A stretch of 32,000 bases of DNA from Thermaceae bacterium (GTDB lineage: Bacteria > Deinococcota > Deinococci > Deinococcales > Marinithermaceae): assembly GCA_026984675.1 (NCBI GenBank), contig JALSRQ010000146.1, positions 1 through 32,000 of the forward strand. The letters run 5' to 3'. The first letter of the stretch is position 1. The number at the start of each line of letters is the position of its first letter. This document shows, piece by piece, positions 988 through 10,591 of this stretch. A program made the position numbers and the translations under genes. A model generated the notes under the pieces. That model was given only the letters and a program-made list of their open reading frames with translations. It was not told the DNA's origin and made no database searches.

Positions 988-2321
<1,334 letters not shown>

Positions 2322-2330
2322 ATACCCCAC
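2322..2330. repeat. Left copy of the 9-bp direct repeat ATACCCCAC, immediately after the accC stop codon
   Basis: Exact 9-mer repeated at 3316-3324. The two copies bracket the recombinase gene. Confidence 0.7.
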
Positions 2331-2336
2331 TTAACC

Positions 2337-2364
2337 TTGTCAAGCGCCACCGGACACCTAAGGT
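2337..2364 (+). promoter_or_regulatory. Putative promoter for a leaderless recombinase mRNA
   Basis: TTGTCA (2337-2342), 16-nt spacer, TAAGGT (2359-2364), 6 nt, then ATG at 2371. The same -10/N6-7/start geometry recurs at several host genes in this window. Confidence 0.35.
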
Positions 2365-2370
2365 GTAGGC

Positions 2371-3285
2371 ATGCCTACTTTTGCCGGTGTAGACGTATCA
2401 AAGAGCTTCCTCGACGTTTTTGACAGCACGGAGATCAAACGCTACACGAACGACCCAGAGGGATGGGCCGGCATTGCCGAGGAGACACGGGGGCCTTACG
2501 CGATCGAGGCTACCGGGATCTACCACATTCCCGTGGCGCGGTATTTGTGGCGAGAGGGCCGGACCGTCTACGTGGTCTCGCCCCTGCAGGTGAGGCGGTA
2601 TGCCCAGGCGCTCATGGCCCGCAACAAGACCGACAATCTGGACGCGCGGGTCATCGCGGCGTACGCGGAAGCAGCAGGAGACCGGCTCCGACCGTGGACA
2701 CCCTTAGACGCAGACCTGAGCGCGATTCGGGTGCTGGTGGGGTATGCGAGGGGAATCAGCCAGCAAAGCGCAGCCAACCGCAACCGGCTTCACACCGTTC
2801 GGTTCGCCTACCCCGAGCACGCTGGAAACATCGTGGAGACGGTGGCGGAGCTTAAGAAAACGGCGAGGCGGTTTTATCGAGAGGCGTTGAAGGTGGCGCA
2901 TGAAAACCCCACCATCGCCCACTGGATTGATCAGATGACCGAGGTGTCGGGGGTGGGGGAACGGGTAGCGCTCACGGTCATGGCGTACGGCGGCAACCTT
3001 GAGCGGTTCGACAATGCTCGGGCCTTCGCCGCCTACACCGGCCTGACGCCGATGCGAAAGCAGTCGGGGGAAAAGGAGGGAAAAGCGAGGATCTCGCGGA
3101 TGGGGCCGGGGGCGTTGAGGCAAGCGTTCTATATTGCCGCCAGGGTGGCAGTGATGAAGGATGAGCGCTATCGGGCGTACTACGAGCGAAAGCGAGCAGA
3201 AGGGAAGGCGCATCTGCTGGTGATGACCGCGATAGCCCGGAAGCTCGCGGTGGTGACATGGAAAAAGGCCGTGGGCCGGCCCTAG
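2371..3285 (+). CDS. IS110-family DEDD (RuvC-like) transposase/recombinase, 304 aa
   Basis: N-terminal DEDD signature (GVDVSK, AIEATG, KTDNLDA). C-terminal Tnp domain (GVGERVALTV..., YTGLTPMRKQSGEKEGKARISRMGPGALRQAFY). Lower GC than the host genes. Confidence 0.9.
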   Translation: MPTFAGVDVSKSFLDVFDSTEIKRYTNDPEGWAGIAEETRGPYAIEATGIYHIPVARYLWREGRTVYVVSPLQVRRYAQALMARNKTDNLDARVIAAYAEAAGDRLRPWTPLDADLSAIRVLVGYARGISQQSAANRNRLHTVRFAYPEHAGNIVETVAELKKTARRFYREALKVAHENPTIAHWIDQMTEVSGVGERVALTVMAYGGNLERFDNARAFAAYTGLTPMRKQSGEKEGKARISRMGPGALRQAFYIAARVAVMKDERYRAYYERKRAEGKAHLLVMTAIARKLAVVTWKKAVGRP

Positions 3286-3409
3286 CCACGCTTACCCACG
3301 GGCTCAGGGGCCCATATACCCCACCGGCAGGACCTGCGGCGCCAATCTAACCGACGAGCTCAAAGGCTCAGTATGGAGGACGGCGTCCTAGCCCACGGCC
3401 AAGAACAGG
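3286..3409. other. 124-nt non-coding spacer between the convergent recombinase and phage genes. Candidate att-like sequence or guide (bridge/seek) RNA locus.
   Basis: No credible ORF. Contains ATACCCCAC-CG-GCAGG (3316-3331), the palindrome GCAGGACCTGC (3327-3337) and the hairpin AGGAC-GGC-GTCCT (3377-3389). Confidence 0.3.
3316..3324. repeat. Right copy of the 9-bp direct repeat ATACCCCAC
   Basis: Exact match to 2322-2330. Confidence 0.7.
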
Positions 3410-3652
3410 CTACCACCGAGGGCGCTGGTAGGGACATCCAGCTTTTTCGCACCGCCTGCGTCCCTCGCGTAAAGCGGCAATCTCAAGGCCGGACAGCAAT
3501 TCGCCGCAAACAGGGCATCGGGTCCGGGTGTACGTAAAGCTCTTTCTCGAAATGTGTTTGGGATCCGTGCCGGTTAGGAAAGCCGTTCCCAACTTCCACA
3601 ACCACCAGAGCAAAGCGACCACCACCAGGACGGCCAAGAGATCGCCGATCAT
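3410..3652 (-). CDS. Small prophage membrane protein with a C-terminal Cys4 (zinc-ribbon-like) motif, 80 aa
   Basis: N-terminal TM helix (LLAVLVVVALLWWLW), then CPVCG...C-x5-GC. ATG lies 4 nt after the Zot stop. No clear SD. Confidence 0.5.
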   Translation of the reverse strand: MIGDLLAVLVVVALLWWLWKLGTAFLTGTDPKHISRKSFTYTRTRCPVCGELLSGLEIAALREGRRRCEKAGCPYQRPRW

Positions 3653-3656
3653 GCGA

Positions 3657-4529
3657 TTAGGCTATCGCAGGCTCGAGACGGGGGAGAGTCTCGGCGAACT
3701 TTCGACGCAGCAGCTCATGGGGAGGAACGCCTAGACGATATGCGTGGGCGAGCTCGGCTAGGGTGAGGGCAGGAAGGCCGTCGGCGGGGCCCGGGCCAGA
3801 CTTGCGCTGGGCAAGCTTTGACTCATCCCAGGTGAGCCCCAGCGCCTCAACCGCTGCCCGGCGCTTGGGATCGAGCTCCTTTTGCAGCTCGATGATCGGA
3901 GGCGGGAAGATCGCCCGGGTGTCGTAGCAGGAAGCCGCTAGGGGGTCGAGGACCACCACGTCGTTCCGGACGATGCCCTCGAAGATCGTGCTAGATCGCT
4001 TGTTCATCATGCCAAGCGAGTCGTCCATGATGTGGGTGTAGCGGATCACTGGGCGGCGCCAGCGGTGCTTGGGCCACAGAAGGAGCTTTAGCCAGATGGG
4101 CGCGGGCCGGGCCCACCAGACATGAGCCACCAGGTCGCGGATCATGGTGTCCACCGAGGCATACCGCTGGGTCGCGAGGAGTACATCCACCCCCACCTTG
4201 CGGTGCTGGGACCAGAAGCCCAGGACCTCGGTGGGAAAGAGGCGGTACTCCCGGGCGTTGAACCACATGTGGGCTTCGTCGAAAAGCAAAAGGCCTTCAT
4301 AAACACTCAGCAGACCTTTGTAGTCGCGGATCTCTTCGATGCTATCGGCACGGAGAACGGCCTCGCGATGGGGCATGCGATGACGACGGCGCAGGTAGTG
4401 GTAAACGTTTTCGCGAATAAAGCCGAAGTTGGCGTAAACCCGCTTACCCCTCGCGAGGGCTTGAAGCCCTCGATGAACGAGCATGTAGCTCTTACCCGAG
4501 CCCGGAACGCCCACGTAGGCTTCAATCAT
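3657..4529 (-). CDS. Zot/pI-like inovirus assembly P-loop ATPase, 290 aa
   Basis: Starts MIEAYVGVPGSGKSYMLV (Walker A) and has LLLFDEAHMWF (Walker B). ATG at 4529 lies 2 nt after the upstream gene's stop. The 151-aa upstream extension in the ORF track is rejected. Confidence 0.85.
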   Translation of the reverse strand: MIEAYVGVPGSGKSYMLVHRGLQALARGKRVYANFGFIRENVYHYLRRRHRMPHREAVLRADSIEEIRDYKGLLSVYEGLLLFDEAHMWFNAREYRLFPTEVLGFWSQHRKVGVDVLLATQRYASVDTMIRDLVAHVWWARPAPIWLKLLLWPKHRWRRPVIRYTHIMDDSLGMMNKRSSTIFEGIVRNDVVVLDPLAASCYDTRAIFPPPIIELQKELDPKRRAAVEALGLTWDESKLAQRKSGPGPADGLPALTLAELAHAYRLGVPPHELLRRKFAETLPRLEPAIA

Positions 4530-4531
4530 GG

Positions 4532-4936
4532 CTACCCACCGCCCCTCAGGAACTTGACGCCCTTGTAGAGGAAGATCGCGCCATAGACCGCCGCCCAGAC
4601 CGAAGCGGCGGTCAAAACCTCGGAGACCGGAAAGAAGACGTTCAACAGGCCCAGGTAGGTGCCGAGCGAATCGGTATACCACTGGGGCGGCTGGGGGACC
4701 TGGGGCAGCAGGTGGGCCAGGGTGGTGAGCAGGATGAAGAAAAGGTCCACGAGCAGGTTCAGGACCGCAACCAGGAGATCCAGGAACCAGCCCAGCACCG
4801 CCCCCACCAGGGAGCCCAGCGCTTGCCAGAGTGCACCGAAGAGACTCGCAAACCAGCCCAGGACATGCCCGGCGGCCTGGGCAATCAGGTCGGCGATCAT
4901 CTGCAAGAACGACGCGAGGGCACTCACCGGAACCAC
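4532..4936 (-). CDS. Polytopic hydrophobic prophage protein in the gVI position (minor coat/assembly)
   Basis: 134 aa, strongly hydrophobic, immediately upstream of and coupled to the Zot gene. GTG start at 4936 is uncertain (poor SD spacing; alternative ATG at 4900). Confidence 0.6.
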   Translation of the reverse strand: MVPVSALASFLQMIADLIAQAAGHVLGWFASLFGALWQALGSLVGAVLGWFLDLLVAVLNLLVDLFFILLTTLAHLLPQVPQPPQWYTDSLGTYLGLLNVFFPVSEVLTAASVWAAVYGAIFLYKGVKFLRGGG

Positions 4937-4980
4937 CTCCAGGCGGAGAAGGGGATGCTCCTTTCAAAGCCGCCGGGCGC

Positions 4981-5100
4981 AAGGGTGAACCCCTTCGGGA
5001 ACCATCCCCTTCGCGCGGCGCGGTACCGAAAAGCGGGAGTCCTCACCGAGTCCGGCCGTCCGACTCCAGACCTGCGCCGCGCTCCGGGGACGCTTCGCGC
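4981..5100. repeat. Repeat-rich phage intergenic region with nested inverted and short direct repeats
   Basis: Inverted repeat GCGCGGCGC (5013-5021) / GCGCCGCGC (5074-5082) encloses GGAGTC (5036-5041) / GACTCC (5062-5067). Direct repeats are CCCCTTCG (4990-4997, 5006-5013) and CTTCGCGC (5009-5016, 5093-5100). Confidence 0.6.
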
Positions 5101-5120
5101 CCTTGCGCCCGTCGGCCCAA

Positions 5121-5161
5121 GAGCAAGCAAGAGAATCGAGGGCTTTCCAGGGGAAAGCCCT
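5121..5161 (-). terminator. Intrinsic terminator after the pIII-like gene
   Basis: Perfect 10-bp stem AGGGCTTTCC/GGAAAGCCCT with a 3-nt loop (5139-5161). On the - strand it is followed by the U-rich CGAUUCUCUUGCUUGCUCUU. Confidence 0.65.
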
Positions 5162-5179
5162 TGTTCCAAGTTTCTCAAG

Positions 5180-6643
5180 CTAGGCATGGCTTGCCCTCCG
5201 GGCGACAGCGAAGAGGAAGCCAACCATGAGGGACGCCAGAACAATGCGGCGACCGGTCGACGCAGCCCACTGCATCACAGGGTTGTTACAAATGTCCACG
5301 TCGGCGGGGGGGAGGTCGGGGATTTGAAGCTGAACGTGCATGTCGCAGGCTCCGCCGCCGACCGAGGGCGGGGTAGGGATCCACCGGGCCATGCCGACCG
5401 GGAAGCGGTCTTGCAAAAGTTGCCAGAGATCGCTAAGGCGCTGTTGAAAGTTCTGGCGCAAAGGGTCAAAGCGCCCGGCCAGGTCGGGAAGGGTGGGGGC
5501 GTCGAAGGTCGGCAGATCGACCGGAGTCAGGGAGGGCATGCTGGGATCAGGTACCTGGTCAGGTTGCTGATCAGGCTGGCACTGGTTATTAGGGTCGTCC
5601 GGGCAAGGGTCCGCCGAGTCCTTGAGGCCGTCGCCGTCGGTGTCAGCGTCCTGGCTTACGTCCGGGCGGCTGCTGGGATCGGTGGGATCGGTCCCGGCGT
5701 CGCGTTCCGTACCGTTATCGTAGCCATCCCCATCGGGGTCGGCGGTCGGCAAGGGCTGGGACCCTGCGTTCGAGGGGTCCGAGCCGGTATCCCACTCGAA
5801 CCAGTCGGGCCAACCGTCCCCGTCGGAGTCCTCGGCAGGGTTAAAGAAGGGGTTGTCCCACCATTGGTTGCCGGTTGGGGGAGGATCAAGGGAAAGACCA
5901 GGAATAGGCACGCTGAAGGACTGGGGGATATTGCCCTTAGCGTCCTGATCGTTAAGGTAGTCGGTGACAGCCTGCTTAACCCCATCGGCAGCGTCGGGGT
6001 GAGACTGAATCCAGTCGGGGAGAGGAGGGCGGTTAACGCGGACATAGGCCGCGTCTACAGTCCAGGGGGTACCGCCTCCGGGGGGTATCACCTGGACAGG
6101 GCCGCCGAGCTGATCGCGGTCCACCCACTGGTAGTCGGTTAGCGTGCCTTCGCGGTTGAGAATCGCCTGCTCACCGACGGAGAGGGCAGGAGTAGGTGGG
6201 CAAGAGCCACCGCCTACTTCGCGAGGCTGGCAGTTAGGGCAGGTGTATCGCCAGTTGTATGCATGGAAATAGCTATCGCAGTACCCGCCGGTAATAACCC
6301 AAGCCCAATCGGAATAGGGACCACCGGCAAGGTTCCACCAGGTATCTAAGGACGTGCCGGTAGACTTCTTGGCTTGGTCGTAGAACCACTCTAGGCCGGT
6401 GTAGATCAGGGAGGCGGCGAACACGGCGACGCCGGCATAACGGACTACAGAGCCCCAAACCAGGCGCTTTTGGAACTGAGCGTCGGACCAAGCGATAACC
6501 TCGTCCAAAGTAAAGCCTTGGATAGCGGACTCGGCAGCGTTAAGGAAGCCAGGAGAAGAGGCAGGAACAGGGCGGTGAGCGTAGGTCGGGGAGAGCAAGG
6601 CCCCGGCCACCGCCAGGGCAACCAGCAGCCGGGGCACTCGCAT
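5180..6643 (-). CDS. pIII-like secreted, C-terminally anchored adsorption/minor coat protein with thrombospondin-type-3-like Asp-rich repeats
   Basis: Signal peptide MRVPRLLVALAVAGALLSPTYA and C-terminal TM anchor (IVLASLMVGFLFAVARRASHA). DxDGDG motifs (DSDGDGWPD, DPDGDGYDNG, DTDGDGLKD). Lies directly after the coat gene. Confidence 0.7.
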   Translation of the reverse strand: MRVPRLLVALAVAGALLSPTYAHRPVPASSPGFLNAAESAIQGFTLDEVIAWSDAQFQKRLVWGSVVRYAGVAVFAASLIYTGLEWFYDQAKKSTGTSLDTWWNLAGGPYSDWAWVITGGYCDSYFHAYNWRYTCPNCQPREVGGGSCPPTPALSVGEQAILNREGTLTDYQWVDRDQLGGPVQVIPPGGGTPWTVDAAYVRVNRPPLPDWIQSHPDAADGVKQAVTDYLNDQDAKGNIPQSFSVPIPGLSLDPPPTGNQWWDNPFFNPAEDSDGDGWPDWFEWDTGSDPSNAGSQPLPTADPDGDGYDNGTERDAGTDPTDPSSRPDVSQDADTDGDGLKDSADPCPDDPNNQCQPDQQPDQVPDPSMPSLTPVDLPTFDAPTLPDLAGRFDPLRQNFQQRLSDLWQLLQDRFPVGMARWIPTPPSVGGGACDMHVQLQIPDLPPADVDICNNPVMQWAASTGRRIVLASLMVGFLFAVARRASHA

Positions 6644-6647
6644 GGCC

Positions 6648-6872
6648 TTACCCCTTGAGGAAGCGCCGGGCGAACTTGAAAGCGGTCATGAGCCCGATGG
6701 AAAGGGCGAGGACGCCGACGCCGGCGGCGGCGATTGCGCTCAGGTTGGCGGTCACCTTCTGGGCGATGGGGGTGGGGTCGATGTCCGCCGAGGGAGCGGT
6801 TTGGGCGAACGAGAGCGCCCCCAGGAAAAGCGAGGTGCCAAGGACCGAGAGCTTCTTGAGAAACTTCTTCAT
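6648..6872 (-). CDS. Inovirus major coat protein precursor (pVIII-like), 74 aa
   Basis: AAGGAGG lies 8 nt upstream of the ATG at 6872. Signal peptide MKKFLKKLSVLGTSLFLGALSFA, then a 51-aa mature part: acidic N-terminus, AIAAAGVGVLALSIGL core, basic C-terminus KFARRFLKG. Closely resembles the PH75 coat protein as I recall it. Confidence 0.88.
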   Translation of the reverse strand: MKKFLKKLSVLGTSLFLGALSFAQTAPSADIDPTPIAQKVTANLSAIAAAGVGVLALSIGLMTAFKFARRFLKG

Positions 6873-6922
6873 GAGAATCAGCCTCCTTTCGTAGTTGCTC
6901 AACGCACGGCCCTGGACGCGCG

Positions 6923-7015
6923 TTAGAGCCGACGCAGAACGGCCCGGAGAGCACCGAGGATGACGCCCCCCGCAAGGCCCCAAAGGTAGGCTCCCCAAAT
7001 GGGTTGCCAGTCCAT
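6923..7015 (-). CDS. 30-aa hydrophobic micro-protein (gVII/gIX-like position)
   Basis: MDWQPIWGAYLWGLAGGVILGALRAVLRRL. AGGAG lies upstream. ATG overlaps the upstream stop (TGATG). Confidence 0.5.
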   Translation of the reverse strand: MDWQPIWGAYLWGLAGGVILGALRAVLRRL

Positions 7016-7122
7016 CACAGGCTCCTGAAGAGCACCCAGGCATAGCGGTAGGCGGCGAGGAACGCGTAGGGAACGCTGGCGATGGTGACCACCGAGAGCC
7101 AAGCGGTGCTGGGATCGAACAT
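7015..7122 (-). CDS. 35-aa hydrophobic micro-protein (gVII/gIX-like position), absent from the ORF track
   Basis: Hand translation gives MFDPSTAWLSVVTIASVPYAFLAAYRYAWVLFRSL. TGATG overlaps occur at both ends. Confidence 0.45.
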   Translation of the reverse strand: MFDPSTAWLSVVTIASVPYAFLAAYRYAWVLFRSL

Positions 7123-7226
7123 CACCAGTCCCCCACGGCCAGCACGCCGGTAAGCACGCCAAGGGCGAAGGCGAAGACCTTCAGGACCTCGACGACCTGA
7201 CCGACAGGAACCTGAGCCAGGCTCAC
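7122..7226 (-). CDS. 34-aa hydrophobic micro-protein, absent from the ORF track
   Basis: GTG start overlaps the stop of the upstream gene (GTGA). Translation is (M)SLAQVPVGQVVEVLKVFAFALGVLTGVLAVGDW. Confidence 0.35.
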   Translation of the reverse strand: MSLAQVPVGQVVEVLKVFAFALGVLTGVLAVGDW

Positions 7227-7492
7227 TTGGCCTTCACCTCCGCACGTTCGCGAACGTAGTGAACGGTACCGAGACGGGGGGTGTTCTCTCTGAGGTAGAC
7301 GCGGGCCCGGAAGGTGACGGGATCCATCGGCTTTAGCGCCATCACGTCAGGGACGCTCTCGGGGTCCAGGTTCAGGCGCAGGATGGGGCTTTCGTCGTCG
7401 ATGATCAGTTCAACGGTGTGGTAGACCTTGCCGTTATCGGCGGTGCGGGAGGTGTACCGTACAAAGTTCCCTTTTACGTAGACTCCGTTCAT
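7223..7492 (-). CDS. 89-aa protein in the gV position, putative ssDNA-binding protein
   Basis: GGAGG lies 9 nt upstream of the ATG at 7492. Size and position match inovirus gV. The beta-rich sequence (MNGVYVKGNFVRYTS...) is compatible with an OB fold. Function is assigned from synteny only. Confidence 0.5.
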   Translation of the reverse strand: MNGVYVKGNFVRYTSRTADNGKVYHTVELIIDDESPILRLNLDPESVPDVMALKPMDPVTFRARVYLRENTPRLGTVHYVRERAEVKAK

Positions 7493-7620
7493 TTTCCTAA
7501 CCTCCGTCCATAGTGCGGATCGCCTGTCAGCGCGGTGCCGATCACCACGCGCAAGGCCCAAAGAAAAGCGGTGCCGTTATCACAGAGGAGGCGCCAATAG
7601 CGGAGAAACCGCAGCATCAT
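7489..7620 (-). CDS. 43-aa ORF between the rep and gV-like genes
   Basis: ATG overlaps the rep stop and its TGA overlaps the next ATG (ATGA), which fits a translational-coupling chain. No recognisable motif. Confidence 0.3.
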   Translation of the reverse strand: MMLRFLRYWRLLCDNGTAFLWALRVVIGTALTGDPHYGRRLGK

Positions 7621-8993
7621 GCAGCCACCCCTTGGTAAAGCGCAAGGCGTTCCAGGTAGCGGTGCTCGAAGACGCCGCCGGCCAGGGCCTCGGGAAGTGC
7701 CCGGGGTGAGGTGCGGAATAGGCGGGCGAGAGTGCGCTCGAGGTACTTGCGGGCGTAGGCGACGCGTTCGAGCGCCACACCCTGCATTGCGGCAGCGGAG
7801 AGGATCACGCCCACGGCCTGAGCCAGGAGGCCCTCGGTAGCAGCGCGGAGGGGCCGACGGGCACGCTTGAGGGGAACCCGGACCTGGGCCCAGGCCAGAA
7901 TGACCTCCGTCCAAAGCGGATCTTCCGGCCAGCGGGTCTTCTGCTGGTTCGCGCTCGGAACCCGCAGGCTGAGCCAGTGCGTGGTCAGGTAGTACCAGAG
8001 GGCGCCAAGGTTCTCGACCAAGGTGGGCCACTCATGGAAGTCGAGAAGGCCCTTCTCGGGGTGCAAGAAGGCAGTGAGCACGTCCTTGCGAAGCTGGAAC
8101 TCGACGCGCCAGACCACCGTGTTCTCAAGGTCGAGGCCGAAGCTCGCCGCGTAGTCGCGGAGAAGCTCCTTCGCCTCGGGCTTCTTACGGGCCTCGGCGG
8201 TCTTGCTGTAGATCCGGGCCAGGAGCTTCTTGCTCCCGAACCGGAACGAGGTCCAGCGCGGGCCGCTAAGGTGCACCTGGGCCTCGGCGAGGGCAGAGGG
8301 CGCGGCAAGAAGCGCCAGGCCCTCACCCGTGCACTTAGCGGCCCCCGTGCTACTCATGGGGGGGCCGCCCGCGCCCGGGGCGGCGCTCCCGCGCTCGCCG
8401 CCGGGCGCTTCGGCGGCATCCTCCAAGTAGGCTTGGCGATCGCGGGCACGGGAAACGAAGCGGTAAAGGTCCGGGAGCTCGAAGGGGTGATCCGGTGAGG
8501 CGAAGTCGGCGTAAAGATCCACACGTGAAACGCCGATACGTACAGGGTCGGGATCTTGCAGCCCAGCCCGTGCCATAAGCGCAATCAGCCGGGCAGTGAT
8601 CGCATCGACGATCTCGCGGATATTCCCGCCAAGAGCGCGGATGTAGCGCCCGTGGAGCTCGACACGGACCTGGGCATAGTCGTCCCGCTTTACGGCTGGC
8701 TTCTCTGGGTCTGAGATGCCCAGGAAAAGGGCCTCGTCCCCGAAGACGAGGCCGTAACGGTAATGCCGGACGCGGCGAATCTGGGCCCGCTCAAAGTCGC
8801 GGGGCTCAAGGGTGGCCGGAATGCCAAGGTCAGAGACGTCCACAAAGACCGGGCGGTCGAGATCGGTCTCGTTGCGTTTGACAAGCCCGGCTTCCAGGCG
8901 CTGGTGAAGGTCAGAAGGGAGACTGTAGCGCGGACCCCAGGAGTACCAGAGGACCAACGTGTCCACGCCGTGGGCAAGCGGGGTTGCATTCAT
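7617..8993 (-). CDS. Rolling-circle replication initiator, Rep_trans (RstA/pT181 RepC-like) family, 458 aa
   Basis: The LLARIYSKTAEARKK segment resembles the conserved RxYDK catalytic-Tyr motif of Rep_trans proteins. N-terminal GVDTLVLWYSW resembles the family's DWL motif. First gene of the phage block. No SD, and only about 9 nt from the island edge. Confidence 0.7.
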   Translation of the reverse strand: MNATPLAHGVDTLVLWYSWGPRYSLPSDLHQRLEAGLVKRNETDLDRPVFVDVSDLGIPATLEPRDFERAQIRRVRHYRYGLVFGDEALFLGISDPEKPAVKRDDYAQVRVELHGRYIRALGGNIREIVDAITARLIALMARAGLQDPDPVRIGVSRVDLYADFASPDHPFELPDLYRFVSRARDRQAYLEDAAEAPGGERGSAAPGAGGPPMSSTGAAKCTGEGLALLAAPSALAEAQVHLSGPRWTSFRFGSKKLLARIYSKTAEARKKPEAKELLRDYAASFGLDLENTVVWRVEFQLRKDVLTAFLHPEKGLLDFHEWPTLVENLGALWYYLTTHWLSLRVPSANQQKTRWPEDPLWTEVILAWAQVRVPLKRARRPLRAATEGLLAQAVGVILSAAAMQGVALERVAYARKYLERTLARLFRTSPRALPEALAGGVFEHRYLERLALYQGVAA

Positions 8994-9012
8994 TTGGGTG
9001 CAGGGTAAGGAT
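8984..9012 (+). promoter_or_regulatory. Possible junction-spanning promoter for leaderless asp23-nusB-folD
   Basis: TTGCAT (8984-8989, inside phage DNA over rep codons 2-3), 17 nt, AAGGAT (9007-9012, host side), 7 nt, then ATG at 9020. Confidence 0.25.
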
Positions 9013-9019
9013 GGGGGCG

Positions 9020-9328
9020 ATGGCCGACTACGAGCTTTCCGAGGCCGCCCTGGCGCAGCTGGTGGGGTTTGCCCTGGACGCGGTGGACGGCGTCCGGTTG
9101 GCCTCCGGCAAGGGGCTCGGCGGGCGCCGCCGCCCGGTCCGGCTGGGGCGGGAGGAGGGCGGCATCACCGTCGAGCTGGGGCTGGTCGCCGCCTACGGCC
9201 GGTCTCTCCCCGAGCTCGGCCGCGAGGTCCAGCGGGCGGTGGCCGAGGGCCTCAAGGCCACCGCCGGGGTGAGCGTCCGTCGGGTCGACGTGGTGTTCCT
9301 CGAGGTGGAGCCCGATGAAACGGCGTAG
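9020..9328 (+). CDS. Asp23/Gls24-family (alkaline shock) protein
   Basis: MADYELSEAALAQLVGFALDAVDGV... is a typical Asp23 N-terminus. The ORF-track start at 8984 would overlap the rep start and island edge and is rejected. Overlaps nusB by 14 nt. Confidence 0.8.
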   Translation: MADYELSEAALAQLVGFALDAVDGVRLASGKGLGGRRRPVRLGREEGGITVELGLVAAYGRSLPELGREVQRAVAEGLKATAGVSVRRVDVVFLEVEPDETA

Positions 9329-9751: not shown

Positions 9752-10591
9752 ATGGCCGAGCTCCTCTACGGCGCACCGGTGGCCGAGGCGGTCTACGCCG
9801 AGCTGGCCGATCGCCTGGCCGGGCTGCCCTACACCCCGAGCCTCCACGTGATCCGGGTGGGGGAGGACCCGGCCTCGCTGGCCTACGTGCGCTTGAAGGC
9901 CCGGCGGGCCCGCCGGTTGGGGCTAAGGAGCACCGTCCACGCCCTTCCCGAGACCGCCGAGGAGGCCGAGCTGCTGGGCCTGATCGAGGCCCTGAACGCC
10001 GACCCCGAGGTCGACGGGATCTTGGTCCAGCTCCCCCTGCCCGCCCACATCGCCACCGCCCACGTCCTCGAGGCCATCGCCCCGGAGAAGGACGTCGACG
10101 GCTTCCACCCCCTGAACGTGGGGCGGCTCTGGTCGCGGGGGCCGGGGGTCGGGCTCGACCCCTGCACCCCCGCCGGGATCATGCGCCTCTTGGCCCACTA
10201 CCGGGTGCCGGTCGCCGGGCGCCGGGCGGTGGTGGTGGGGCGGAGCAACATCGTCGGCAAGCCGATGGCGGCGATGCTGCTGGCCGCCGACGCCACCGTC
10301 GCCGTGGCCCACTCCCGGACCCGCGACCTGGCCGCCCTCACCCGCGAGGCCGAGCTCCTGGTGAGCGCGGTGGGGCGGCCCGGCTACCTGAGGCCGGCGA
10401 TGGTCCGACCGGGGGCGGTGGTCGTCGACGTGGGGATCACCCGGGTGGGGGAGCGGCTTTTGGGCGACGCCGACCCCGGGGTGGCCGAGGTCGCCTCCCG
10501 GCTGACCCCGGTGCCCGGCGGGGTGGGGCCGATGACGGTGGCGATGCTGCTTTGGAACACGGTGCGGGCGGCCGAGCGGAGGCGGGGATGA
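9752..10591 (+). CDS. folD: Bifunctional methylenetetrahydrofolate dehydrogenase/cyclohydrolase
   Basis: Motifs VGEDPASLAYVRLK, GILVQLPLP, VVVGRSNIVGKPMA and TPVPGGVGPMTVAML. Confidence 0.95.
   Translation: MAELLYGAPVAEAVYAELADRLAGLPYTPSLHVIRVGEDPASLAYVRLKARRARRLGLRSTVHALPETAEEAELLGLIEALNADPEVDGILVQLPLPAHIATAHVLEAIAPEKDVDGFHPLNVGRLWSRGPGVGLDPCTPAGIMRLLAHYRVPVAGRRAVVVGRSNIVGKPMAAMLLAADATVAVAHSRTRDLAALTREAELLVSAVGRPGYLRPAMVRPGAVVVDVGITRVGERLLGDADPGVAEVASRLTPVPGGVGPMTVAMLLWNTVRAAERRRG

Follow-up and report, generated by a model that had tools for sequence, protein, structure and literature searches.

Why does the sequence ATACCCCAC occur on both sides of a recombinase gene that lies next to the genes of a filamentous phage? 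The question is raised by a 32,000-nucleotide stretch of a Thermaceae bacterium (contig JALSRQ010000146.1, positions 1 to 32,000; hereafter the window), in which an IS110-family recombinase gene and an inovirus (filamentous phage) prophage stand between accC and asp23. One copy is located right behind the accC stop codon (TAG, 2319-2321), at 2322-2330, and another 30 nt past the recombinase stop, at 3316-3324, as had been reported in an earlier reading of the sequence alone (the original prediction). That reading left two explanations: (a) a 994-bp insertion sequence (IS) flanked by a 9-bp target-site duplication, or (b) a guide RNA encoded in the 3' flank of the recombinase gene, with the recombinase and the phage together as the mobile unit. 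The comparisons described here support both of these elements of (b), and we consider it likely that positions 2322-9009 are a filamentous phage integrated by its own IS110-family recombinase and a bridge RNA of the IS621/IS1111 kind, with the phage as cargo. This view is carried by the boundaries of the insert, the fold and covariation of the RNA, the matches of the guides to the element ends, and the covariation of the target loop with ten insertion sites.

Results

The recombinase and the prophage form one insert

An empty accC-asp23 site, whose comparison with the window had been proposed as a check in the original prediction, was found in L006, a contig encoding an identical accC protein and in which accC and asp23 are ten bases apart. 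The site reads GCGGGTAG/GATGGGGGCG (slashes mark the point of insertion), its flanks are 99-100% identical to those of the window, and ATACCCCAC is missing from it; the target half was read in the same contig as GCGGGTAG/GATGGGGG. Because of this empty site, the insert is delimited to 2322-9009 (6,688 bp), a single unit composed of the recombinase and the inovirus prophage, with a 2-bp ambiguity in its boundary due to the AG common to both junctions. This AG core is present at 2320-2321 and 9008-9009 in the window and only once in the empty site, without any target-site duplication. The ATACCCCAC at 2322 is therefore the left end of the element and not chromosomal sequence, and the boundaries exclude explanation (a). 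The size of the element is in line with that of the free phages phiOH16, Zuza8 and Zuza27 (6.5-6.8 kb).

The right end of the element finishes as ...GCAGGGTAAG at 9009, and the empty site moves the right junction to 9009/9010 from the 9000/9001 first proposed. The GCAGG at 9001-9005, initially taken for chromosomal flank, lies within the element and is variable in relatives (GAAGG, ATAGG, TTAGG, AAAGG). The stretch ATACCCCAC-CG-GCAGG and the palindrome GCAGGACCTGC behind the recombinase gene do exist as originally written, but the idea that they represent the left and right flanks of the island fused together has to be abandoned, as L006 places ATACCCCAC inside the element.

Fifteen related loci, with recombinases 55-100% identical to that of the window, were collected by exact-protein look-ups and collection scans; most of the comparative data come from the metagenome scan and the exact-protein look-ups, the genome contig scan contributing two loci and the viral contig scan one. 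The element start ATACCCCA was located directly behind the flank in 13/13 loci including the upstream flank, and these represent 10 different flanks. The element end AGGGTAAG was found in the four other loci reaching the far end (L010, L012, L029 and L033), about 6.7 kb away and just beyond the gene II start. The motif ATACCCCACCGGCA adjoins only this recombinase lineage and is absent from phiOH3, phiOH16 and Zuza8; phiOH3 had been suggested as a possible source of the motif as ordinary phage sequence.

The 3' flank of the recombinase gene probably encodes a structured RNA

The alignment of the 3' flanks (13 sequences) predicts that 3267-3400 encodes a 134-nt structured RNA, consisting of a closing stem (P1) and two arms, each of them an internal loop around a hairpin (Table 1). 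The geometry of both arms is identical: an outer stem of 6-7 bp and, inside it, a 14-nt hairpin with a 12-nt loop on either side. The model comprises five helices and 33 pairs; 96.2% of the 416 cells form standard pairs, compared to 32-47% when the partners were slid, and nine pairs show compensatory (double) changes (0/500 shuffles). Examples are P1, which is GGCTGCGGG/CCCGCAGCC in L014 and L015, and the outer stem of the donor-binding arm, which covaries between CCCU/AGGG and AGCG/CGCU. One strand of this latter stem is the GCAGG at 3327-3331; its similarity to the right end, previously read as a link, is a 5-mer match by chance. RNAalifold, run independently, gave the same helices; the folding z-score of the exact 134-nt stretch was -3.9 (-3.2 for a second z-score); the minimum-energy fold of the L012 homologue reproduces the whole model; and the length of 134 nt is kept in 10/12 homologues.

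The donor arm matches the element ends and the target arm the insertion sites

Each arm carries two guides. In the donor arm, CTTACCC matches the right end (7/7) in the window and in L010, L012, L029 and L033, and ATACCCCAC, 9/9 to the left end in the window, is conserved in 10/12 homologous RNAs, down to 57% recombinase identity. The exceptions are L029, in whose RNA the first letter is T in place of A (TTACCCCAC), and L012, which has the 9-mer but fails the 14-nt search pattern. The donor-loop guides are near-invariant among homologues and the element ends likewise, and in the relatives of the phiOH16 type the equivalent loop follows the different ends of those phages. By its sequence, the donor arm is predicted to read the circular phage junction, ...GGGTA-AG-ATACCCCAC... 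Explanation (b) had assigned the 9-mer stretch to a target loop mirroring the chromosomal site; it corresponds instead to a donor-binding loop matching the element's own ends, and the target loop is found 20-60 nt beyond it, at 3347-3353 and 3370-3379.

The target arm is predicted to read the chromosomal site CGGGT-AG-GATGGGGG, and the AT at 3345-3346, ahead of its first guide, fits a 2-nt handshake with the donor. Covariation of the 3' flank with the insertion sites, another of the checks proposed at the outset, was found. The left guide is exact (7/7) in L001, L008, L011, L012, L015 and L033, L001 being inserted at the same site as the window element, and 6/7 in the window, L010, L029 and L032; at its four variable positions there are 39/44 matches to the own flank versus a permuted mean of 20.1 (0/100,000 permutations). 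The right guide is 8/8 in L012, whose target loop is CTAACGT / ACTGAGGG, and in L029, with an overall permutation result of 6/720. Among the seven copies with at least 88% identical recombinases, 13/15 target-guide columns are variable compared to 9/120 other columns (Fisher p = 1e-10), the target guides holding 13 of the 22 variable columns. Altogether, the target loop was shown, at the level of aligned sequences, to covary with the flank in 11 relatives at 10 different sites. The target loops also predict the right flanks of further loci: AG/ACTGTAGG in L008, AG/GATGGGTC in L011, AG/AATGGCAT in L015, AG/AATTGGGG in L032 and AG/AATCGAGG in L007.

Some individual copies deserve mention. In L010 (11170-11200), the guide AG-ACTGGGA faces the site AAG-G-ACTGGGA, and the left guide is also mismatched beside the core; off-target or bulged insertion may explain this. 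L001 encodes an identical recombinase protein behind the same left flank (accC), the target loop of its RNA (10420-10554) differs at 1 + 4 positions, and the sequence beyond the RNA gene differs from the window, which suggests a distinct phage backbone or recombination between phages. The L007 copy (1870-2027) is broken off within the RNA closing stem by another insertion sequence, in which the C-terminus of an rve-type transposase, with the ending ...HYYNWHRPHSSLG..., is encoded on the minus strand.

The window contains three copies of ATACCCCAC, versus 0.09 expected (three were reached in 0/100 shuffles). The third copy lies at 2737-2745, on the minus strand, inside the recombinase open reading frame (ORF; codons V-G-Y), and is complementary to the guide in the mRNA sense; a functional role was rejected, as synonymous changes erase this 9-mer in homologues, and we regard it as coincidental.

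Table 1 Features of the integrated element in the window. Positions are those of the window; assignments of guides, arms, promoters and the RNA gene are predictions.
Feature	Position	Strand	Remarks
Whole element	2322-9009		Absent from L006; same layout and ends in L010, L012, L029 and L033
Left half of chromosomal target, CGGGTAG	2315-2321		Includes the accC stop and the AG core 2320-2321
Element left end, ATACCCCAC	2322-2330	+	Donor sequence predicted to be read by guide 3316-3324; identical to 3316-3324
Putative recombinase promoter, TTGTCA, 16 nt, TAAGGT	2337-2364	+	Just before the near-leaderless ATG
IS110-family DEDD recombinase, 304 aa	2371-3285	+	PF01548 and PF02371; NF033542
Predicted bridge RNA gene, 134 nt	3267-3400	- (favoured, not settled)	Overlaps the last 19 nt of the recombinase ORF
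Closing stem P1	3267-3276 (GGCCGTGGGC) with 3391-3400 (GCCCACGGCC)		4/10 pairs doubly compensated
Donor-binding arm	3280-3332		Outer stem 3280-3283 and 3285-3287 with 3326-3332; two 12-nt loops; hairpin 3300-3313
Donor guide, CTTACCC	3291-3297		Reverse complement of the right end GGGTAAG (9003-9009); minus reading: right donor guide GGGUA-AG
Donor guide, ATACCCCAC	3316-3324		Equals the left end, 9/9; minus reading: left donor guide GUGGGGUAU
Target-binding arm	3338-3387		Outer stem 3338-3343 with 3382-3387; two 12-nt loops; hairpin 3356-3369
Target guide, CTAACCG	3347-3353		Complement of left chromosomal flank and core, 6/7
Target guide, AG-TATGGAGG	3370-3379		Same sense as core and right flank, AG-GATGGGGG; 6/8 in the flank
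Candidate -10-like box, TAGCCT	3407-3412	-	6 nt upstream of P1; UUUUU (3266-3262) after P1
Inovirus genes	3410-8993	-	Gene II-like initiator 8993-7617; coat protein B 7043-6648; gene III-like 6643-5180
Inovirus genes, continued	4982-3657, 3652-3410	-	Zot/gene I-like within 4982-3657; small ORF 3652-3410
Element right end, GGGTAAG	9003-9009	+	Includes the second AG core copy (9008-9009); abuts the chromosome at 9009/9010
Right half of chromosomal target, GATGGGGG	9010-9017		Just upstream of the asp23 start; L006 empty site

The recombinase belongs to the RNA-guided IS110 family

The recombinase matches the NCBIfam model NF033542 "IS110 family RNA-guided transposase" with 188 bits (cut-off 140) and is 32% identical to IS621 over its full length. 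The DEDD RuvC-like domain and the C-terminal Tnp domain with the catalytic serine are both present, and all five catalytic residues (D8/E46/D88/D91/S232) align with those of IS621 (D11/E60/D102/D105/S241). The protein is identical in two other contigs, and all the ORFs of the window element are intact. The nearest cellular relatives (L061-L067) are IS110-type, with a recombinase of 316 aa and 32% identity; the 5' non-coding end measures 225 nt and the right end about 20 nt. The insertions lie next to hairpin repeats of the CCCCCATCCC type (groundwater metagenome contigs).

The left end of the element before the recombinase measures 49 bp and contains a putative promoter of this gene (2337-2364) on which the consensus promoter scan made no call; TTGTCA-N16-TAnnnT is kept across all lineages although the spacer varies. 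Positions 2343-2338 of the minus strand read TTGACA. In the circular form, this TTGACA (2338-2343, minus strand) and the TACCCT at 9002-9007 (minus strand) would be separated by 18 nt and lie shortly before the start of gene II, constituting a candidate junction promoter split by integration, on which the scan tool again made no call. A TTGACA-N17/18-TAnnnT arrangement across the crossover point is also present in phiOH16, Zuza8 and L016.

The cargo is an inovirus related to Thermus phages

The order of the gene II-like, coat B and Zot genes is conserved and the element measures about 6-7 kb, as in an inovirus (Thomixvirus-like) prophage; the Pfam matches among the phage genes were Zot, Phage_Coat_B and TSP3. 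The closest phages are the Thermus phages phiOH3, phiOH16, Zuza8 and Zuza27, to which the Zot protein is 64% identical; the gene II-like initiator is 32% identical to phiOH3 gene II. Megablast of 2300-9300 against phage records gave no match, the similarity to Thermus inoviruses being at the protein level only. On the chromosomal side, the right end GGGTAAG/GATG (window 9003-9013) nearly recreates the original GGGTAG/GATG upstream of asp23 (L006 4333-4342), so that the ribosome-binding context of asp23 is preserved after insertion.

Thermus prophages have been described with an endonuclease gene at one end and a transposase at the other, and integration by the transposase was proposed, with no mention of a guide RNA (PMC11437467). 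phiOH16 and the Zuza phages share with the window element the phage family and the gene order; their IS110-family transposase gene, located between genes IV and II, encodes a protein with 38% identity to that of the window. They differ in that this recombinase is reversed relative to the RNA and the phage genes, and in the element ends (e.g. TTGTG-AG-ACTACCAT). A homologous two-arm RNA was located just upstream of the recombinase in L003 (33-160), L004 (6638-6759), L016 (5670-5795) and other loci of the phiOH16 type, a set comprising the free phages phiOH16 and Zuza8 as well as prophages akin to them. One of its arms matches the target (e.g. ACCCA-AG-CTTACCCC) and the other the own junction (TTGTG-AG-ACTACCAT), and this junction arm covaries across three lineages. 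CCCAAG/CTTACC is the conserved target of the phiOH16-type elements (comparison with the circular Zuza8 genome), and the phiOH16 attachment site is inverted relative to that of Zuza8. phiOH3 (L005) has no recombinase between the end of gene IV and the start of gene II; the first arm and part of the linker are kept, and this RNA-like remnant is identical to phiOH16 up to ...GGGCTCCGA, which fits loss of the recombinase by deletion.

The minus strand is probably the transcribed strand

IS621 and IS5075 (the latter IS1111-type, located in the Tn21 inverted repeat) share one intrinsic guide layout: the 5' guide is long, has the sense of the left side of one DNA strand and terminates in the core, and the 3' guide is short and complementary to the core and the right side, with a 2-nt handshake behind it in IS621 (PMC11208158, PMC11208160). 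The window RNA fits this layout only when read on the minus strand, where the target loop becomes CCUCCAUA-CU ... CGGUU-AG-AU and the donor loop GUGGGGUAU-AU ... GGGUA-AG, with the handshake AU matching the donor ...AT/CT as in IS621. Read in this way, the RNA would run from 3400 to 3267, target loop before donor loop, convergent with the recombinase gene. The IS110-type cellular relatives, with their 225-nt 5' non-coding end, were also counted for this strand.

The plus-strand covariance model R1 detects a homologous region in every phiOH16-type locus (E = 5e-7 to 0.03), and the positions and strands of these matches indicate that the RNA locus is co-oriented in both phage lineages and that only the recombinase gene is flipped. 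In the phiOH16-type loci, the region lies on the opposite strand and upstream of the recombinase, an orientation in which the RNA has the form of a canonical 5' bridge RNA. A minus-strand RNA would be convergent with the recombinase in the window lineage and co-directional in the phiOH16 lineage. The RNAalifold energy of the window group was better on the minus strand (-54.3 versus -49.4 on the plus strand), and the same strand is better in both groups. A TAGCCT at 3407-3412 may be the -10-like box of the RNA gene, although the scan tool made no call; a TAnnnT is present 6-8 nt from P1 in every lineage despite the different neighbouring sequence, and an equivalent box and a U-rich tail are present at the phiOH16-type loci.

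The main alternative, which we consider rather unlikely, is that the same bridge RNA, with the same function, is read from the plus strand as a processed 3' untranslated tail of the recombinase mRNA, with the donor loop first. This arrangement would resemble that of the IS1111 elements, in which the mRNA and a long seekRNA are co-transcribed (PMC11187229), the RNA being directly 3' of the recombinase gene and overlapping it. The plus strand is further supported by the wobble pairs (30 G.U versus 10 A.C; 369 of 384 cells paired, versus 349 on the minus strand), which weigh against the minus strand together with three fixed positions where the G.U of the plus strand becomes A.C on the minus strand; the fixed G.U pairs lie in the outer stem of the target arm and in both hairpin closings. 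The single-sequence z-score is also better on the plus strand. However, the plus-strand layout is reversed compared to IS621 and IS5075 (a short 5' guide complementary to the left, a long 3' guide in the same sense), the subterminal inverted repeats of the element measure 5 bp (TACCC/GGGTA) compared to 10 bp in IS5075, the 5' non-coding end of the nearest cellular relatives and the RNAalifold energies point to the other strand, and the phiOH16-type RNA would be forced antisense to its own recombinase, with 34 A.C mismatches. The wobble counts of the phiOH16 group favour the recombinase-sense strand; the counts of the two groups are contradictory if the RNAs are homologous. A "mirror RNA", in which the two lineages transcribe opposite strands of homologous DNA, would fit the wobble pairs in both groups; it was discarded for lack of parsimony, given that one intrinsic layout serves both IS621 and IS5075.

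Discussion

Comparison with known bridge RNA systems

The closest characterised system is IS621 (Durrant et al. 2024, PMC11208160; Hiraizumi et al. 2024, PMC11208158). Besides the homologous recombinase, the two systems share an RNA with separate target and donor loops, both built as an internal loop enclosing a hairpin, a CT core (AG on the plus strand of the window) and the lack of target duplication; in the minus reading they also share the order of the loops (target first), a long 5' guide in DNA sense ending in CU, a short 3' guide ending in AG followed by AU, and the motif AGAUU. The window element differs in the position of its RNA gene, at the 3' end of the recombinase gene and probably convergent with it, whereas the IS621-type RNA is upstream and co-directional; in the length of the RNA (134 versus 177 nt), closed by a long-range stem into a three-way junction; in the recombinase (304 versus 326 aa); and in the phage genes, 5.6 kb in all, that separate the RNA gene from the far element end. 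The covariance model R1 detects neither the IS621 RNA nor the cellular relatives L061-L067. The arrangement typical of the IS110 group (RNA upstream and co-directional, long left end) is not that of the window element, and the upstream arrangement is found in the phiOH16-type loci and in L061-L067.

With the IS1111 group (ISEc11, ISKpn4, IS5075; Siddiquee et al. 2024, PMC11187229) the element shares a long non-coding region 3' of the recombinase gene and short RNA segments matching both target strands around the insertion point; for ISEc11, movement of cargo placed close to the right end has been demonstrated (PMC11187229). The differences are several: the subterminal inverted repeats, 10 bp in IS5075 (GGTCACTCCC/GGGAGTGACC) and 7-17 bp in the group, are only 5 bp in the window element; the recombinases of the group have 330-350 aa; and the guides are arranged in the opposite way. 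In the recombinase sense, IS5075 has a 5' guide complementary to the right target and a 3' guide in the sense of the left target, whereas the window has a 5' guide complementary to the left target and a 3' guide in the sense of the right target. Thus the IS1111 analogy drawn in explanation (b), a 3' seekRNA in recombinase sense, is probably incorrect: the layout fits IS621 and IS5075 only on the opposite strand, and those cellular elements whose recombinases come closest are of the IS110 type, with a long non-coding region at the 5' end.

Two other groups of elements are comparable. The Neisseria Nf/MDA prophages (Piv/IS110-like transposase; Kawai et al. 2005, cited in PMC11437467) are likewise, as far as they are described there, inoviruses integrating by means of their own DEDD transposase at a specific repeated sequence, and the literature examined reports no guide RNA for them. 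In the cargo-bearing "expanded" IS110 elements, some with phage-derived cargo (bioRxiv 10.64898/2026.08.14.744561), recombinase and bridge RNA also move many kb and LTG/RTG match the flanks; these are described as carrying resistance and metal cargo on plasmid-like DNA. The description includes no complete autonomous virus that relies on the module for integration, and the terms "inovirus", "filamentous" and "prophage" are absent from the text of that report.

Proposed integration by a phage-encoded bridge RNA and its alternatives

By homology with IS621, the recombinase and the RNA would bring together the circular phage junction and the chromosomal site, donor GGGTAAG/ATACCCCAC recombining with target GCGGGTAG/GATGGGGG (target sequence GAGCGGGTAGGATGGGGGCG). 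Strand exchange would take place at the shared AG core (CT on the other strand), and the whole circle would be placed between accC and asp23 without target duplication; the RNA gene would have its own -10-like box and a U-tract behind the closing stem. Production of the RNA and its binding to the recombinase are inferred, as are the reaction chemistry and the transcribed strand.

Several results weigh against this model. The target loop of the window has three mismatches to its own site (1/7 in the left guide and 2/8 in the right); the left guide of L007 is 5/7 and the right guide of L033 is 5/8; the right flank of L010 fits only with a 1-nt offset; and the donor guides and the ends are constant, so there is no donor covariation within the lineage. 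The search for the circular junction GGGTAAGATACCCCA in IMG/VR gave only 27 unrelated chance hits, the promoter/terminator scan called nothing on either strand, and the Rfam scan of 2200-3800 (E up to 10) found no matching family.

The mismatches could be accommodated by assuming that the RNA gene is real and the window copy is a decaying relic, with a target loop drifted since integration and the capacity for precise excision and re-integration lost. One A.C mismatch in the outer stem of the donor arm, unique to the window, would agree with this, as would the perfect left guide of L001 (identical recombinase, same left flank). We regard such decay as unlikely: the ORFs are all intact, two other contigs encode the identical recombinase protein, and IS621 tolerates one or two guide mismatches (PMC11208160). 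The mismatches could also mean that accC is a secondary site for an RNA tuned elsewhere; a better-matched site, CGGTTAGTATGGAGG, was searched for in the window and none was found. A much less probable explanation is that the end-like motifs are DNA binding sites (arm-type or accessory) for the recombinase or a phage protein, without any functional RNA. Both donor-like motifs are indeed DNA copies of the element ends, like the accessory sites of some recombinases, but the compensatory changes found in five helices point to selection acting on a single strand in its folded state, the second loop of identical geometry tracks the chromosomal target, which is unexpected for an end-binding DNA site, and the recombinase family is experimentally RNA-guided (PMC11208160, PMC11187229). 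There is, finally, next to no likelihood of an IS110-family IS of about 1 kb (2331-3315) with ATACCCCAC as a 9-bp target-site duplication and unrelated to the neighbouring prophage. The direct repeat does flank the recombinase gene, as this explanation requires; however, the recombinase and the phage are absent together from the empty site, which lacks ATACCCCAC, the left 9-mer moves with the element behind ten different flanks, the right 9-mer lies within a conserved structured loop, and the complement of the other guide is 5.7 kb away, exactly at the junction with the chromosome.

Biological meaning of the proposed RNA-guided integration

Bridge RNAs or seekRNAs and IS110 elements with large cargo were already known (PMC11208160, PMC11187229, bioRxiv 10.64898/2026.08.14.744561), as was the association of IS110 transposases with Thermus inoviruses (PMC11437467). 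Our literature search found no paper on an inovirus bridge RNA or its loop-by-loop assignment, on a natural reprogramming series, or on an RNA gene at the recombinase 3' end (probably convergent). Beyond integration at this one locus, we put forward a wider proposal, whose chances of being right or wrong we judge to be evenly balanced: the lysogeny site of the virus would be written in RNA, by a free-standing 134-nt bridge RNA gene with its own promoter and an orientation uncoupled from that of the recombinase, of which only the target loop is rewritten in relatives (recombinases 74-100% identical, ten sites). This would represent the natural reprogramming of a compact thermophilic bridge recombinase moving a complete replicon.

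In this proposal, near-identical phages with different target loops at different sites would constitute a natural reprogramming series, and the small size of the thermophile system (a 304-aa recombinase and a 134-nt RNA) may interest bridge-recombinase engineers. The same RNA locus with opposite recombinase orientations in two phage lineages would provide a case for the origin of the IS110 5' RNA and IS1111 3' RNA layouts. Above all, a bridge RNA module acting as the integrase of a complete virus would account for the choice of integration site by Thermus-type filamentous phages, for which earlier work had only guessed that the IS110 transposase was responsible.

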